Shown here: piece by piece, positions 51,977 through 58,889 of the stretch | Layout: each line of letters opens with the position of its first letter | Position numbering within the stretch: position 1 is the first letter of the stretch | Assembly (NCBI GenBank): GCA_004764695.1 | Contig: SMSO01000014.1 | Span: forward strand, 6,190,029 to 6,254,028 | Origin: Schizochytrium sp. TIO01 | Taxonomy: Eukaryota; Protista; Bigyra: Labyrinthulomycetes | Direction: 5' to 3' | Length of the DNA: 64,000 nt | Position numbers and translations under genes: made by a program | Notes under the pieces: generated by a model | Database searches by the model: none | What the model was told of the DNA's origin: nothing | What the model saw: the letters and a program-made list of their open reading frames with translations, nothing else

Positions 51977-53485
51977 ATGTCCCAACCTTCGCTTGCAGGC
52001 CTTCGCCGGCAGGGCCAAAACAAAGCAGACCGGCAAGGCTTCCCTAGCGAAGCATCCATGGCACCAACCATCGCTAGGCAGAACACAACAGAGGCAACTT
52101 CAGCAAAACCTGCGTTGGCGATGGGAGGCACAAAGGCCTCGACAACAAAGCCTGCGAAACCTTTTTTTGCTAGCATGCATGTGGCTAAACCTTCTGAGAA
52201 TGACCTCATAGTACAGGAATACCTTCATGTCAAGAAAGATAGTCGAGCCAGTATAACTAATCGATACACCAAGAAGGATCAGGATCATTGCACGTCAATC
52301 AGCAACTATATCGAACTTCTTCGCGCCCAGAAGCTATCAGTTAGGGAAATACAAACACCAGCCGCTAAACCTGAGCCCATGCAGATTGAGGATGACGACA
52401 TGGATGTGAGCTTAATCTCCGAAACTCATGGCGAGGCCCCAAAATCAACAACTTCTGTGGCACCACCTCTGAGGTCCACGAAACGAAATCGTACTAGAGA
52501 TTCTTTGCAAGAACCTGTGCCGTACGAAACTCTAGCGAGCTTGCTTAATACGATGAGTTTTGTTTCGTCAGAACCGGAGGAAGCTATCATGCACCCTAAC
52601 TACACATTACGCACATCATCCACATACACGCGAGACTCGTATTTCAGCCATATCTGGCAGAAGTCACGCAATAAAACGTTTCAGGCAACCCGAAAGCTGT
52701 TGGAACCTCTCCCTGTCCCTGTAGAGGAACCAAAAGGTCCACAAGTAAACCTGACCCCAGCCTTTACGGAGGAGGAGGAAGACATGTATGATGCTGCGAT
52801 GAACTCGAGCGATGACAATAAGGTGCTTGTCCAAAGGTTTAATGTTGATCTTATGGCTCAACAAATGTATTGCCTTGAAGGACTTCAATGGCTGAATGAC
52901 GAGGTGATTAATTTTTATCTTTCCCTACTTCGGGAACGCTCACTTCATTTGGTAGAAACGAATGCAACACCTGGTCTATCATGCTATTTTCACCTCACTC
53001 TCTTCTATTCTAAATTGACGGAGAACAACAAATACAACTATAAAGGTGTGCAGCGTTGGACGAAGCGTGGATTCCGCAAGTGTGACTTATTCACTCAAGA
53101 CATTGTGTTTTTCCCTCGTAACATCGGCAACTCACATTGGACGCTTTGTGTCGCCTTCATTAAGGAAAAACGTGTTGAGTACTTTGATTCTATGGCAGGT
53201 GTAGGCCGTGAGTGCATGCAGAACATTCTCCATTACCTTCGTGACGAGCATGCAGACAAGAAGGGAAGCGAACTTGATACTAGTGATTGGGAGCTTATCG
53301 ATCATGGCCCGAACGTACCGCAACAAAATAACGGTTCTGACTGTGGTGTTTTCCTCTGTACATTCTGCAACTTTTTGTCTATGGGCCAACCGTTGGATTT
53401 CGAGGCCAAAGATATGCCATACATGCGCAAACGCATTGCAATTGATTGTTTGAAGGCTGCCAGCACTTATGAAATTCAATCCTAA
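51977..53485 (+). CDS. Ulp1/SENP SUMO protease (C48)
   Basis: WLNDEVINFY, V.RWT, HWTL, YFDSM, PQQNNGSDCGVF (His-Asp-Cys triad plus oxyanion Gln). Confidence 0.95.
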   Translation: MSQPSLAGLRRQGQNKADRQGFPSEASMAPTIARQNTTEATSAKPALAMGGTKASTTKPAKPFFASMHVAKPSENDLIVQEYLHVKKDSRASITNRYTKKDQDHCTSISNYIELLRAQKLSVREIQTPAAKPEPMQIEDDDMDVSLISETHGEAPKSTTSVAPPLRSTKRNRTRDSLQEPVPYETLASLLNTMSFVSSEPEEAIMHPNYTLRTSSTYTRDSYFSHIWQKSRNKTFQATRKLLEPLPVPVEEPKGPQVNLTPAFTEEEEDMYDAAMNSSDDNKVLVQRFNVDLMAQQMYCLEGLQWLNDEVINFYLSLLRERSLHLVETNATPGLSCYFHLTLFYSKLTENNKYNYKGVQRWTKRGFRKCDLFTQDIVFFPRNIGNSHWTLCVAFIKEKRVEYFDSMAGVGRECMQNILHYLRDEHADKKGSELDTSDWELIDHGPNVPQQNNGSDCGVFLCTFCNFLSMGQPLDFEAKDMPYMRKRIAIDCLKAASTYEIQS

Positions 53486-53693: not shown

Positions 53694-55733
53694 TTATTGG
53701 AGATTATTAACCAGTTCCATGTACGCCTCGCGCTCGACGTCGATACCATGGTTTCTTTGAATAAAATTCATTGCTTGAGCAATGAGACGCTTGCGGAACT
53801 CCATCGTATGGTCTGATAATATTCGTGTGACCTGTGTAACAAATTCACTCGGAGAATGAAAGACAAGACCAGAGTATTCATGTTTAATGAGCCGTAGGTT
53901 CCCCTCAATAGCCCGAGCTATAACTGGAGTCCCAATGGCCATCGCCTCAAGTATGGCTCCACTCATACCTTCAGATTCAGACGAATTGATCAACACATCT
54001 GCATCTTGAATCGCCTGCAAAATGCTTGTGTGAGGAACTTCGCTATGGTAGACTACGGAGCTGTCCGTGGTTTCCTGAACCCAGGCCTTAATTTCAGAGT
54101 ATACATCTTGATCCAAGCTGGGCCCGACAATAACAAGGTGAGCGAGGGGGTGCAGCTTGCGAACAAGAGACCAAACTTCTCGCAAGTATGTTGGGGCTTT
54201 CACCCTACGCAGGCCGCATATAAGTAACACTACTTGAGAAGTTTTGGGTAGTCCACAGGCTTTGCGCACAGACCAGCGGCTGATCTTTCTTGACTCATTA
54301 ATGCTTCTGATCATGTTTTTGCAATCGACACCTTGTGGAATAATATGAATTTGGGGCATTCTATCGTATTCCCTGAGCTCCTTAGCCATTTCTGGACTGA
54401 AAGAAACGACTGCAGAGCTCTTGCGAAAGCTCTCTACGACAAAGCTTGCGTTCAAAGAGCGGTCCTCAACTGAATCGTCTCCTTTCTTCATACTGACGTT
54501 GACGTCTGTGCCGCCAGTTACAATGAGAACATTATAAGAATGGTTTTCATGCAGCGGTTGAGTAAGGTGACCAACCCTCTTCGCATTAATTCCGATGACA
54601 GTGGTTACTTGAGCTTGCTTCAGCAACGGTAGCACCATATTCACATCTTTGCAAGCCTTTACATTTATGAATAGGGTAGAACATCCAGTTTGTTCTAGTA
54701 TCGAAGCAATTCGACGCGCCGTGGTTAGGTTACCTGTTCCAAGAGTTGTAACTGTAAGAATAGCAATACATTGCGTCGTTCTCCTGGAGCCTGCCAAATC
54801 AGATGTCAACATTGCTGCCAGGCATGAAGCATCTGAAGAAACTGAGCATAGGTTTAGCTGCAAATCATTCTCCAGTACTTGCCGCAGCTGTTCGGATTTC
54901 AAAAGAGTAAGTTCTGACTCGCGCTCAGGTGATTGCGAGAACTCGTCAGGCCCGAGTGGCCAACACCCTTCCTCAGTATCCTTAATTCCAGTACAGCAAA
55001 CACCAGGATGTACCATGAGTTCTATGGATCTCATCGTACTTGGCACTGCCAAGACAGCATCCACTAGGTTTTGCTCTGTGAGATACTGTCCCATCAAAGC
55101 CATGCCAACAAATGCATCTGAAGATCGCCGGATACCCCGCGTTTTGAAGATGTTTTCATAACTTGCTTGAGCATCTCGAGAAACATTACGATAGAACTCC
55201 TCTTTTCCAGGAGGAAGCGCATCGAAGAAATCGGATTGGAAAAAAAGCTCACTTGGGACACGCACCTCCCTCAGTTGATACTGCTGCATCATGATGGCTA
55301 CCGCTGTCGCCACGGGCTCGAGAACATGGGCATGGTTGTGCCCATCTACATGCACAGGGAGGTACCCTGTCAGATCCTTAAACTTGCAAATTTGCGCTTC
55401 GACCTCGCGCAGAAGGTCTTCGGAGCACAATAGACCGCGTTGGGCAAGATCTGCAAGTCCTGAGGGTCCAATGAAGCATTCGTTAAACCCGACCAAAGAT
55501 TTGGGAACAGGCTTTGCAAGCGGAGCTCCTTCCGTCACGTTAATGTGAAGGCCCATGGGAAGACCTGCTTGCAATGCCTTTCGGGCTGCAGACTCTGCAG
55601 AGCGCCCATTCACGAGAAGGGTTGTACGTGTGACCAAACCGTTGCTAAACGAGTCCAGGATGCCATTATCTCTGACAACTCCATAGCCAAAGTCGTCAGC
55701 CGTCACGATTAGCTGCCTTGGCGACATCTGCAT
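53694..55733 (-). CDS. Fusion of YdjC/YDJC carbohydrate deacetylase and GLT1D1-like GT-B glycosyltransferase
   Basis: N-half LIVTADDFGY, GLHIN.TEG, HVDGHNHAH, ELMVHPG, DEFSQSPERE.E; C-half TGN..TA.RI, GGTDVN, LLICGLR.VK.P.YL, HLVIVGP, NSSESEGMSGAILEAM, ARAIEGN; single open frame. Confidence 0.9.
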   Translation of the reverse strand: MQMSPRQLIVTADDFGYGVVRDNGILDSFSNGLVTRTTLLVNGRSAESAARKALQAGLPMGLHINVTEGAPLAKPVPKSLVGFNECFIGPSGLADLAQRGLLCSEDLLREVEAQICKFKDLTGYLPVHVDGHNHAHVLEPVATAVAIMMQQYQLREVRVPSELFFQSDFFDALPPGKEEFYRNVSRDAQASYENIFKTRGIRRSSDAFVGMALMGQYLTEQNLVDAVLAVPSTMRSIELMVHPGVCCTGIKDTEEGCWPLGPDEFSQSPERESELTLLKSEQLRQVLENDLQLNLCSVSSDASCLAAMLTSDLAGSRRTTQCIAILTVTTLGTGNLTTARRIASILEQTGCSTLFINVKACKDVNMVLPLLKQAQVTTVIGINAKRVGHLTQPLHENHSYNVLIVTGGTDVNVSMKKGDDSVEDRSLNASFVVESFRKSSAVVSFSPEMAKELREYDRMPQIHIIPQGVDCKNMIRSINESRKISRWSVRKACGLPKTSQVVLLICGLRRVKAPTYLREVWSLVRKLHPLAHLVIVGPSLDQDVYSEIKAWVQETTDSSVVYHSEVPHTSILQAIQDADVLINSSESEGMSGAILEAMAIGTPVIARAIEGNLRLIKHEYSGLVFHSPSEFVTQVTRILSDHTMEFRKRLIAQAMNFIQRNHGIDVEREAYMELVNNLQ

Positions 55734-56894
55734 CTTCCACACCCAGCTCAACCAGCGCCAGCCGCTATGGTCCTTGCTTGTCTGGTCTTCACGGTCGTCC
55801 TCAGAGACTTGCGAGTCCTCGAACTGGGTATTGGGACTTTGTTGTACTCGTTTTAGCCTTTCCTAAACTAATAGATGTCATAAAATTAAGTTTCGGATTT
55901 GCAAGCTCCTCGAACCACGCGAATCAGCCAGTCACAGCAAGCAAAGTGCTCAAGAGCGCGGCACATGATCTCATGAAGCGAAAGATGATACTAATCGCAA
56001 TGAAGATGATGTTGGAAGCGACCTTAGCAAAGGATGCAAAAGGGGAACATGGTTAGTTATATGGAATCTTGTCTTGGAACAACTGTTTTATTTAGTTGGA
56101 CACGTCATTCAGGGCTACGTGGTCTTGCTGCCCTCCTGAAGGCTTTTCGTGGGCTGCAATCGAATCCACATTTCGTCCTCACTGTTGTCTCAGAAACGTT
56201 CTTCATAAAAGTAATCCAAACCATGGGTACCATGATATGGCGCATGAGATCCCATCTTGCAAAGACGAAACAGGGTAGGTAACTAAGTATAAAAGTAGTA
56301 CATGGTGAAAAGAAGAACAGTAGAAAAATAGACGAAATACTAATAAATTTGAGGTGATGGGACTAAAAGTAAACATTACATAAAATGATGACGATTATGC
56401 AGGACAAACTGATATTCATTGTGACCCAGACAGGAATATACTAGCTGCTTACATGGTGTTGGGTGTCCAGGGTATATGGCCATCCAGTTCGGTTGCTAGG
56501 GGATATGGGGAACAACAGAACAAGCAATTCGTAAAAGCAACAAAAAACGGAGAGATCAGCCACATAAGAAATAATCTCATTAAAAAAAAAATAATAATAA
56601 AATCGATTTTCAACTCGAAAACTTCAATCAATTCTAATTTTAAGCCAAACTCTGGGCCGGTCATCTTCATCAAACTCTCTAATAAATAAAGACATTTTGG
56701 GAAAGGAGAGAGGAGCTTCACTACTGGCTGGTGACTTTCCAAAACGTCGAACCTGAAGCGAAAAGCGTAAGAAGTCCCCCCTCCCTCTTTCTCTCTCTCT
56801 GTCTCCAGTTACACTGAGGGAGAGGATTGCGTAGTTAGTCAGTTTGACAGAAGTGAAGCAAATTCGAATCTTTGAAGGCGCTCGACTCTCAAAA

Positions 56895-58889
56895 ATGTCG
56901 GGAGCTCAGGACTATGCGTCGCTCTCTGCCGTTGAGGCAGATCTGGACACAGTGATGACACTTCCTCCAGCTTCCTCGATCTCCACTGCGTCCTCGGCCC
57001 CCGTGCCAGCAGGAATCCGCAGTCATGGAGGCATGGGCCTCATGTCAAGAAGTGGAAACTCCTTTTCTGACCAAGGACATTCACATGAACATCATGGGCA
57101 TTCACACGAAGACCACGGACATTCGCATGAATTCCATGGACACTCACATGGGCACCATGGACATTCGCATGAGTTCCACGGCCATTCCCACGGTGAGGAG
57201 GACTTTTATGACGATATGGAAGGAACGTTGGAGGATCTTGACCAAGACGCTCTCGCAGACGCACTGCTGGCCATGGGCATCGAAGAAATGGCCAATGGAG
57301 GTACTGGAGACGGCCGTGGCGAGGACCAAAATGACGAGGAGCATGAGGAGCGCGAGAAGGACCAGCAACGACAGCAGGGCGACAAAGAGAAGCAGGATAA
57401 TGACCCGAACGTAACAAACTTCCAGTCTGCAGCTCGAAATGCATTTCGTGAGCTTTTTCAACAATTTGGCCAAGACCCGAGTCAGTTTGGCATGGACTTG
57501 GACGAAGACGGACCCACGAAGCCCCTGGAACACTCGAAGAAATCACCATTTCGCACAGTGGTTGACAACTCAGATGATGAAGATGACGAAATCATGGAGG
57601 CCAATCAAACAAGAAAAGAAACCACCGATGCCAGCACTGAAGATGGAGATGATGCCGAAGATGAAGACGAGGCTGATAGTAATGAAGAAGATGACTCGAG
57701 TGCGGATTCGGATGAAGACCAGGACGATGGTCTTTGTTATCCAACGCAAATCTTCTTCGCAGTGAACGGCGTACAAAACTCAACGCAAAATGGTTTGCAG
57801 GAGATTGGCGCACTCTCCGCCACAAAACCTGAGCAGATCGTTCTTAGTTTGGATCAGCAAACCCGATCTGTTGATATCGAATACTCCTTTTTCGCCACTG
57901 GCGAGGACACGGCAACAATAGTGGCGGCTGTAAGTATTCCAGTGGATCAAGTGCGCGCGGAACTGCGCACATCAGCGCTACCGCGAGGCCCTTCAACACA
58001 AACAATGTTACTCTTGACATTGCAGAATCATCTTGCGGAGGGCTCTTTTTTGGCACAAGAAATGATGGGAGAGAACGCGTTTGAAGAAGTTTCGGACTGG
58101 ACAGATGAAAAATGCGCGTCTCGCGCTGATGCCATTGTTGTTATTGGACGCACGGCTGATTTGATCGACTTTGCTGCAATTTTTGCTCGCCAATTTCCTG
58201 AGTCAGGAGTTGCTTTGGTTGAAGGCGGCACATCCTCTTCTCAAGACCAGTCAGATGCAGATAACGAAAATGACGTGCAGAATGCTAAGCAAAATTACCG
58301 TACGCCAGCTCGAGAGGGGGCTCTCATTGATTCGGACGATGAAGACGAACTTGAAGAAGTATCGGATGCTGATATGATGATAAAGAATGGCGACCATGCC
58401 AATCGCAAGACCTCTCGTAAGAAGTCTCCTACCCAAGAAGACGATAATAACGCAAATATGCCTCCTTTTCCTAGTGATGACGATGTGTATGAGCCTCTGC
58501 CTGTTACGGAGCAAGATATTCTCGCTGCGATGCTGGAGGGAGGACTGCAACTTCAAGGTGATGATCCTTTAGCAAAGCTCAATGATGAGGACCTACAGGC
58601 TGCAGATGAATTTGTAAAGGCTCTGCTGATGGATGATGACGATGATGAAAAAATTGAAGTTGGGGACCGTAAGAACTTAGGAACGGAGGAAACCAACGAC
58701 AATAGCAACAACAATACGGACAACTGGAAATTCGGAAATGATGACAATTATGAAAATGACATGATTGATACTGGTTTGGACATGGATGATGACTCTTTAG
58801 GCTCTGATTTGCTGCAGAGCGGGGACTTGGACGACGACCTAGCCGATGTTTTTGCTGATCTCGGTGCGCTACCCGCCTCTAAAGAGTGA
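56895..58889 (+). CDS. Very acidic protein with N-terminal (HGHSHE)n His-rich repeats
   Basis: Long ORF; GHSHEHHGHSHEDHGHSHEFHGHSHGHHGHSHEFHGHSHG; one short folded-looking central region. Confidence 0.75.
   Translation: MSGAQDYASLSAVEADLDTVMTLPPASSISTASSAPVPAGIRSHGGMGLMSRSGNSFSDQGHSHEHHGHSHEDHGHSHEFHGHSHGHHGHSHEFHGHSHGEEDFYDDMEGTLEDLDQDALADALLAMGIEEMANGGTGDGRGEDQNDEEHEEREKDQQRQQGDKEKQDNDPNVTNFQSAARNAFRELFQQFGQDPSQFGMDLDEDGPTKPLEHSKKSPFRTVVDNSDDEDDEIMEANQTRKETTDASTEDGDDAEDEDEADSNEEDDSSADSDEDQDDGLCYPTQIFFAVNGVQNSTQNGLQEIGALSATKPEQIVLSLDQQTRSVDIEYSFFATGEDTATIVAAVSIPVDQVRAELRTSALPRGPSTQTMLLLTLQNHLAEGSFLAQEMMGENAFEEVSDWTDEKCASRADAIVVIGRTADLIDFAAIFARQFPESGVALVEGGTSSSQDQSDADNENDVQNAKQNYRTPAREGALIDSDDEDELEEVSDADMMIKNGDHANRKTSRKKSPTQEDDNNANMPPFPSDDDVYEPLPVTEQDILAAMLEGGLQLQGDDPLAKLNDEDLQAADEFVKALLMDDDDDEKIEVGDRKNLGTEETNDNSNNNTDNWKFGNDDNYENDMIDTGLDMDDDSLGSDLLQSGDLDDDLADVFADLGALPASKE

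Follow-up and report, generated by a model that had tools for sequence, protein, structure and literature searches.

In the labyrinthulomycete Schizochytrium sp. TIO01, a single gene encodes a YDJC-type deacetylase and a GLT1D1-type transferase (GT4, GT-B fold) in one protein. Its domains, together with the gene neighbourhoods of bacterial relatives, make it well supported that enzymes of the GLT1D1 and YDJC types are functionally linked. From the comparisons described below, the transferase probably acts as SenB does, with tailoring steps added. We give an even chance to a pathway in which a selenium-linked HexNAc would be formed, methylated in trans or in cis, and then de-N-acetylated.

Identification of the fused gene

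The features of the gene, which lies in a window of 64,000 nucleotides (the whole stretch of DNA that was analysed), are collected in Table 1. An earlier note, made from the sequence alone, had described an uninterrupted reading frame for a YdjC deacetylase and a glycosyltransferase. This description held: the 679 codons run without interruption from an ATG start, Pfam domains were found in both halves, and all of the motifs quoted in the note are present, at residues 12–16, 61–63, 130–134, 238–244, 333–341, 407–412, 503–517 and 587–598. An alternative in-frame TTG upstream of the ATG, at 55751, could add 6 residues. The AlphaFold2 model of the 679-residue protein was confident in both domains (mean pLDDT 93.7, pTM 0.93).

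Table 1 Features of the fused gene, with positions in the window
Feature	Position	Strand	Remarks
Fused YDJC-type deacetylase and GLT1D1-type GT4 (GT-B) transferase ORF	53694..55733	(-)	Single ORF, 679 aa
YdjC/ChbG-family deacetylase domain, residues 7-288	54870..55715	(-)	Pfam PF04794
Inter-domain linker, residues 289-321	54771..54869	(-)	Helical in part; at residues 301-320 pLDDT falls to about 61
GLT1D1/GPMC-type GT4 transferase domain, residues 322-679	53697..54770	(-)	SenB-related acceptor half
Motif with N335, T338	54711..54737	(-)	SenB N20, T23 (sugar and selenophosphate contacts)
Motif with G407, T409, D410	54498..54515	(-)	SenB T83, T85, D86; T83 to Gly
Motif with R509, V511, K512	54183..54227	(-)	SenB R155, V157, K158; not diagnostic
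GT4 donor-binding motif with E588, G589, E596	53940..53975	(-)	SenB E231, G232, E239

The fusion is not an artefact of assembly, because both proteins and contigs from other sources span the linker. The protein's 90% cluster contains three MMETSP transcriptome proteins that extend across the linker; one of these is full length, with 2 substitutions relative to the window protein. A single contig covers the reading frame with no gap or joint in all four runs inspected, from four studies, and in two of them it both begins and ends near the ends of the gene (the RNA status of the runs being guessed). Misassembly, a frameshift and read-through were rejected on these grounds and the fusion was confirmed as real; the one transcript across the linker that the earlier note had anticipated is likewise supported, with the same proviso on the RNA status of the runs. 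The closest named homologue, at 46% identity, is a protein of the thraustochytrid Hondaea fermentalgiana. In this protein (P0003) the first transferase motif is altered and some 30 residues behind it are missing, a gap that is possibly a gene-model error.

Among the 25 window ORFs scanned with Pfam, the neighbours of the fusion were eukaryotic housekeeping genes (Ulp1 protease, Spt16 and a PCI-domain protein), with no pathway cluster and no senA or senC/selD; a methyltransferase profile search of the window gave no match. The Ulp1/SENP protease gene, at 51977–53485 (+), converges on the fusion at a distance of about 200 bases, and contigs of two of the four runs join the two genes. An acidic ORF of 664 residues with His-rich repeats and without a Pfam match lies at 56895–58889 (+).

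The deacetylase domain

The YdjC profile was covered as a whole by the N-terminal domain (E 1.8e-49, 169 bits against a cut-off of 29.7). Comparison with the site residues of ChbG (PMC9402603) aligned D13, D14, H63, H132, H242 and R271 with ChbG D10, D11, H61, H125, H206 and R223, the match of R271 with R223 resting on motif position. The metal triad (D14/H63/H132), the base D13, the acid H242 and the conserved arginine R271 are all present, and the same six occur in each of the 36 fused rows. In a subfamily tree (FastTree, midpoint root), a group of 78 rows with local support of 100 stood apart from the ChbG/HpnK-type enzymes and took in 10 of 10 named animal proteins as well as 36 of 36 fused domains. 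The animal YDJC/carbohydrate deacetylases of this clade come from a bird, a vole, fishes, molluscs and cnidarians.

Both ChbG (PDB 7VI8) and HpnK (TIGR03473) share with the fusion the fold, all five core residues and the conserved arginine. However, the fusion's deacetylase belongs to a separate subfamily, reaching 101 bits against a cut-off of 227 for ChbG and 77 against 232.6 for HpnK, and has neither a chb nor a hopanoid context. HpnK is partnered by a GT2 enzyme and the deacetylase studied here by a GT4; by score and partner it falls outside the HpnI/HpnK hopanoid pair named in the earlier note. A related deacetylase was also seen in Peregrinibacteria (P0278, P0283); bacteria of this type are usually without SelD, and should they also carry the transferase they may be a counter-example to a role for selenium.

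The transferase domain and its relatives

In the C-terminal half, Pfam matched the GT1 family PF00534 at residues 486–654 (E 2.4e-23). A single-sequence search returned SenB chains as the closest solved structures to this half, and almost the whole of a bacterial family member could be aligned to SenB. BshA nevertheless ranked above SenB in the whole-domain family profile (80 bits against 68) and in a fold search (Z 36.6 against 33.1), and SenB and other GT4 enzymes could not be told apart by fold. Splitting the profile explains why BshA came first: the donor half does not discriminate SenB from BshA, whereas the acceptor (N-terminal) half puts all six SenB sequences (21.7–38.1 bits) above all ten BshA sequences (5.5–15.8 bits), other GT4 enzymes scoring under 1 bit in the eight of ten that it listed. 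SenB, named by the earlier note in passing, is the best lead.

SenB and the family fell on one side of a branch with an SH-aLRT of 100, away from BshA and other GT4 enzymes, although an AU test did not reject a topology joining the family to BshA (p 0.35; a tree 11 log units better than the free tree of this test was found later). The trees leave SenB either nested inside the family or sister to it. Sequences P0007–P0023, tried as outgroups, were rejected as they turned out to be family members. The fusion's transferase scored 67.3 bits with the SenB model TIGR04348 (cut-off 300; true SenB loci 399–422) and 55.6 with the BshA model TIGR03999 (cut-off 273.7). Judged by cut-offs and residues, the fusion falls outside SenB, BshA and HpnK.

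Its best NCBIfam match was the GPMC system GT4 (NF038229), at 170 bits against a cut-off of 400. This GT4 lies in the same clade as the fusion's transferase, but the neighbours of its gene are an MBL hydrolase, TIGR04442 and a sigma-54 regulator, not YdjC; in one such system (L214:273-7004) the transferase is divergent from these three genes.

Within the trees, the fusion's transferase belongs to a eukaryote clade with the GLT1D1-like P0101 and P0176 (SH-aLRT 99), the named GLT1D1-like rows of the alignments being those of a brittle star, an acorn worm and clams. An ESM Atlas query, made with the homologue P0101 instead of the window protein, returned chordate GLT1D1 clusters as neighbours. 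Each half of the fusion therefore groups with animal proteins of the name that the earlier note had given it, although YDJC and GLT1D1 are separate genes in animals and no methyltransferase fusion was seen there. The ESM Atlas also held a mostly eukaryotic 78-member cluster of about 930 residues (commonest in Chlorophyta among the 14 members with a record) in which an FGE-sulfatase domain, as found in SenA/EgtB-type enzymes, is joined to a GT4 domain that aligns to P0101 at TM 0.90; this is possibly a eukaryotic SenA–SenB-like fusion.

Residues were compared using the SenB pocket map of PMC10891094. The fusion's transferase keeps SenB N20, T23, R61, T85, D86, Q131, R155, V157, K158, E231, G232 and E239, among which the donor triad N20/T23/E231 and K158 appear as N335, T338, E588 and K512, and the catalytic residues are intact in the transferase as in the deacetylase. 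Four of the six selenophosphate-pocket positions (N20, H58, R61, T83, T85 and R155) are identical, with H58 changed to Asn and T83 to Gly; H235 is not kept either, and the EGGAHV motif of SenB is absent save for its Glu and first Gly. Across 81 bacterial and 74 eukaryote-clade members, R155 and K158 are kept in every row, N20 in 76 and 71 respectively, and Thr or Ser at position 85 in 79 and 72. Within the eukaryote clade, 61 of 74 rows have a His at the H58 column, and T83 is kept in just one.

BshA differs from SenB at N20, T23, R26, H58, R61 and Q131, and has a His at column 83 in 10 of 10 rows where the family has Gly, Thr, Ala or Ser, no family group having this His as one of its leading residues. 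The GTD motif, R.VK (R155, K158) and both glutamates are common to the family and BshA, so R155, K158 and the glutamates prove nothing alone. BshA/BshB and MshA/MshB resemble the fusion in their GT4 fold (with the best Z-score), their C-terminal donor motifs and the logic of transfer followed by deacetylation. They differ in the acceptor-half residues, the His of their HGTD motif being Gly407 in the fusion, and in that the BshB/MshB deacetylases are PIG-L-type, not YdjC-type. SenB (PDB 8JJN, 8JJQ, 8K5U, 8FBX), from the senABC selenoneine cluster, shares with the fusion the GT-B fold and the lack of a BshA-type His, and the family's association with SelD is a further likeness. Beyond the residue changes given above, the fusion differs from SenB in being eukaryotic, with a deacetylase and a methyltransferase as family partners in place of SenA, and with selD rarely adjacent.

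Distribution of the fusion and bacterial gene neighbourhoods

Among the top 150 clusters of a survey at 50% identity, 41 hold both domains (the window protein's own cluster being one of them), 82 the deacetylase only and 27 the transferase only; the architecture is accordingly not unique to this assembly. Eleven of the 41 fusions have an added C-terminal class I methyltransferase domain nearest to HemK, PrmA and N6AMT1, a third partner that the earlier note had missed. These triple fusions form two sets, one Ala-rich and bacterial-looking, the other Asn/Lys-rich and inside the eukaryote clade. With 2 candidates scored per genome, 351 genomes from the order of a betaproteobacterium (G049) gave no triple fusion and 6 matches of deacetylase length. 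The two domains give broadly congruent trees. In one protein (P0102) the transferase is instead fused to NAT_N and GNAT_C acyltransferase domains, the reverse of deacetylase chemistry.

A GTDB contig scan seeded with four bacterial transferases returned 61 loci, comprising 55 family loci and 6 SenB loci with selD or senA-like neighbours (two confirmed above the TIGR04348 cut-off). YdjC was directly upstream of the transferase in 49 of the 55 family loci, a count that is biased because the seeds had been found beside YdjC. With a profile of the transferase only, YdjC lay within 1.5 kb at 16 of the top 30 loci in Planctomycetota (two previously known) and at 9 of the top 30 in Desulfuromonadia. 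Genome-wide, YdjC was found in 24/34 Planctomycetota carriers of the transferase against 4/34 non-carriers, and a cognate, high-scoring YdjC in 29/80 Desulfuromonadia carriers against 1/41 others. Bacteria thus show both adjacency and co-occurrence of the two genes, in support of the pairing made in the earlier note.

The dependence is one-way: 29 of the 30 Desulfuromonadia genomes with a cognate YdjC also have the transferase, whereas 51 of 80 Desulfuromonadia carriers and 10 of 34 in Planctomycetota have the transferase without a cognate deacetylase and with other partners. A deacetylase that almost never occurs without the transferase fits an order in which transfer would come first and deacetylation would be a tailoring step. 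The sequential logic of the earlier note stands to this extent, while the O-glucosaminide of BshA/MshA type is a weaker analogy since the acceptor half matches SenB, not BshA. A predicted complex of bacterial YdjC and transferase from one operon, modelled without alignments, scored 0.00, which speaks neither for nor against an interaction.

A methyltransferase was present in 32 of the 55 family loci, usually fused to a D-Ala-D-Ala-ligase-like ATP-grasp domain, as in many Syntrophales-type operons. ATP-grasp fusions with a HemK-like methyltransferase lie upstream of ydjC and the transferase at L019:5948-7663, L037:67-1719 and many of L093-L136, and suggest that these bacteria acylate the freed amine. 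Elsewhere, a transferase–methyltransferase fusion was seen downstream of ydjC (L147:75-2054) and an FGE-sulfatase-domain gene directly after the transferase (L127:6502-7602). Planctomycetota ORFs of 950–1140 residues (L202:3014-6106, L203:460-3315, L204:3206-6628 and L205:2588-5845, starts as called) carry the transferase C-terminally, after a long N-terminal part with no Pfam match at E 1e-7. At four other Planctomycetota loci (L207, L209, L210 and L212) the transferase follows a BtpA-family gene instead of YdjC, and in three of these a GT2 gene also precedes it. Geobacter-type members adjoin a PhnP-like hydrolase and some Rokubacteria members adjoin phosphonate-type transporters; no recurring sulfur-activation or arsenic genes were found among the neighbour proteins scanned.

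Association with SelD

Of the 48 family-bearing genomes examined for SelD, covering 48 of the 55 loci, 47 had it. Among 301 Planctomycetota genomes SelD was present in 33/34 carriers against 186/267 others (Fisher p 1.5e-4, uncorrected for relatedness and at a 130-bit cut set after viewing the list); 7 candidates were scored per genome, one known member was missed, and two weaker matches (126 and 114 bits) came from genomes without SelD. SelD was also found in 3/3 new Acidobacteriota carriers. Four carrier genomes gave no SelD match (G005, G263, G348 and G379, all incomplete). The Desulfobacterota say nothing on the link because nearly all have SelD, the baseline in two samples being 116/121 and 128/131.

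At locus L242, one of 18 carriers viewed, a same-strand run comprises rlmB, ydjC, the transferase (303 bits GPMC against 89 SenB), selD with an in-frame TGA, and a cytochrome c gene. At L091, selD is three genes upstream of the transferase. Most loci have no selD nearby, just one of the 55 family loci having it within 8 kb. The enrichment of SelD, together with the adjacency at L242, points to selenium.

Proposed biosynthesis and alternatives

In the route that we propose, the transferase would move HexNAc from UDP-HexNAc onto selenophosphate, and cleavage of the Se–P bond would then give a beta-selenoglycoside. The partner methyltransferase, which is absent from the window and would here act in trans, would methylate the selenium, and the deacetylase would remove the N-acetyl group, yielding CH3Se-HexNAc and CH3Se-HexN. 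In animals the split GLT1D1 and YDJC would account for HSeGalNAc and the deacetylated CH3SeGalN of urine. Two features count against Se-methylation: the fusion of the methyltransferase to ATP-grasp, a sign that the freed amine is put to use, and its resemblance to the N-methylating HemK/PrmA enzymes.

Selenosugars are the main form in which mammals excrete selenium. A 2026 review (PMC13714061) places CH3SeGalNAc, CH3SeGlcNAc and deacetylated CH3SeGalN in human urine, gives the urinary selenosugar a beta configuration and UDP-GalNAc as its source, and counts the enzymes that make HSeGalNAc and methylate it as unresolved; likewise, the part of PMC12936836 drawn on here names none for either step. 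We regard it as plausible, if a little short of even, that GLT1D1, YDJC and a HemK-like methyltransferase make up a selenosugar pathway conserved from anaerobic bacteria through protists to animals, with GLT1D1 as HSeGalNAc synthase, YDJC responsible for its deacetylation and the protist fusion as a two-step version. If so, animal GLT1D1 and YDJC would be testable candidates for the enzymes behind urinary selenosugars, GLT1D1 making the compound from which the main selenium metabolite of urine derives. Functions would thus be given to two human genes that are associated with disease and are currently assigned from cell-level work, and small-molecule selenium chemistry would reach beyond selenoneine into protists and anaerobic bacteria. 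Were selenium wrong, the linkage would still define an uncharacterised transferase–deacetylase–methyltransferase pathway of bacteria and eukaryotes.

Among the open-access papers listed, no title or abstract opening ties GLT1D1 or YDJC to selenosugars or to each other; one paper contains both names. The main text of the SenB discovery preprint is without the words eukary-, human, deacetyl- and methyltransferase; supplements of SenB papers could hold distant homologues. A literature search on thraustochytrid selenoproteins gave nothing relevant.

The main competitor, which we think unlikely but take seriously, is a BshA/BshB- or MshA/MshB-like route in which GlcNAc is placed on a hydroxyl of a small organic acid, polyol phosphate or lipid and the freed amine is then modified by the ligase and the methyltransferase. 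The first rank of BshA in whole-domain profile and fold, the motifs that it shares with the family, the unrejected topology of the AU test and the ATP-grasp–methyltransferase upstream in many operons, expected if the amine is acylated, all favour it. It sits poorly with an acceptor half that fits SenB and lacks BshA's column-83 His and its residues at the six other differing positions, and it leaves the SelD enrichment and the ydjC–transferase–selD run unexplained. SenB-like chemistry on another inorganic acceptor is rather less probable still. That acceptor would be thiophosphate or sulfide, from which a thiosugar would result, or else an anion resembling phosphate or arsenate, and the product would then be methylated and deacetylated. 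The same pocket residues would suit any small tetrahedral anion, T83G and H58N reshape the pocket in eukaryote-clade members, and the PhnP-like hydrolases and phosphonate-type transporters noted above are in keeping with such acceptors; nonetheless, SelD enrichment and adjacency favour selenium, as does the lack of recurring sulfur-activation or arsenic genes among the neighbours scanned.

It is improbable that the two domains act on unrelated or loosely coupled substrates (for instance in salvage or recycling of HexNAc derivatives), with the fusion serving co-regulation, or that the deacetylase acts first, on a nucleotide sugar. Carriers without a cognate deacetylase and the separate genes of animals speak for such uncoupling, but the nearly constant presence of the transferase with a cognate deacetylase in Desulfuromonadia, the congruent domain trees and the intact deacetylase site of all fused rows speak for tight coupling. 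Least credible of all, and very improbable, is that the enzyme glycosylates proteins, a role put forward for human GLT1D1 with the N-glycans of PD-L1. GLT1D1 levels are reported to track glycosylated PD-L1 (PMC7191186), on the strength of knockdown and inhibitor work in a paper whose main text is without the word 'purified'. The fusion protein, moreover, lacks any strongly hydrophobic stretch (best 19-residue mean 1.32), and the family is common in anaerobic bacteria, where it lies in metabolic operons.
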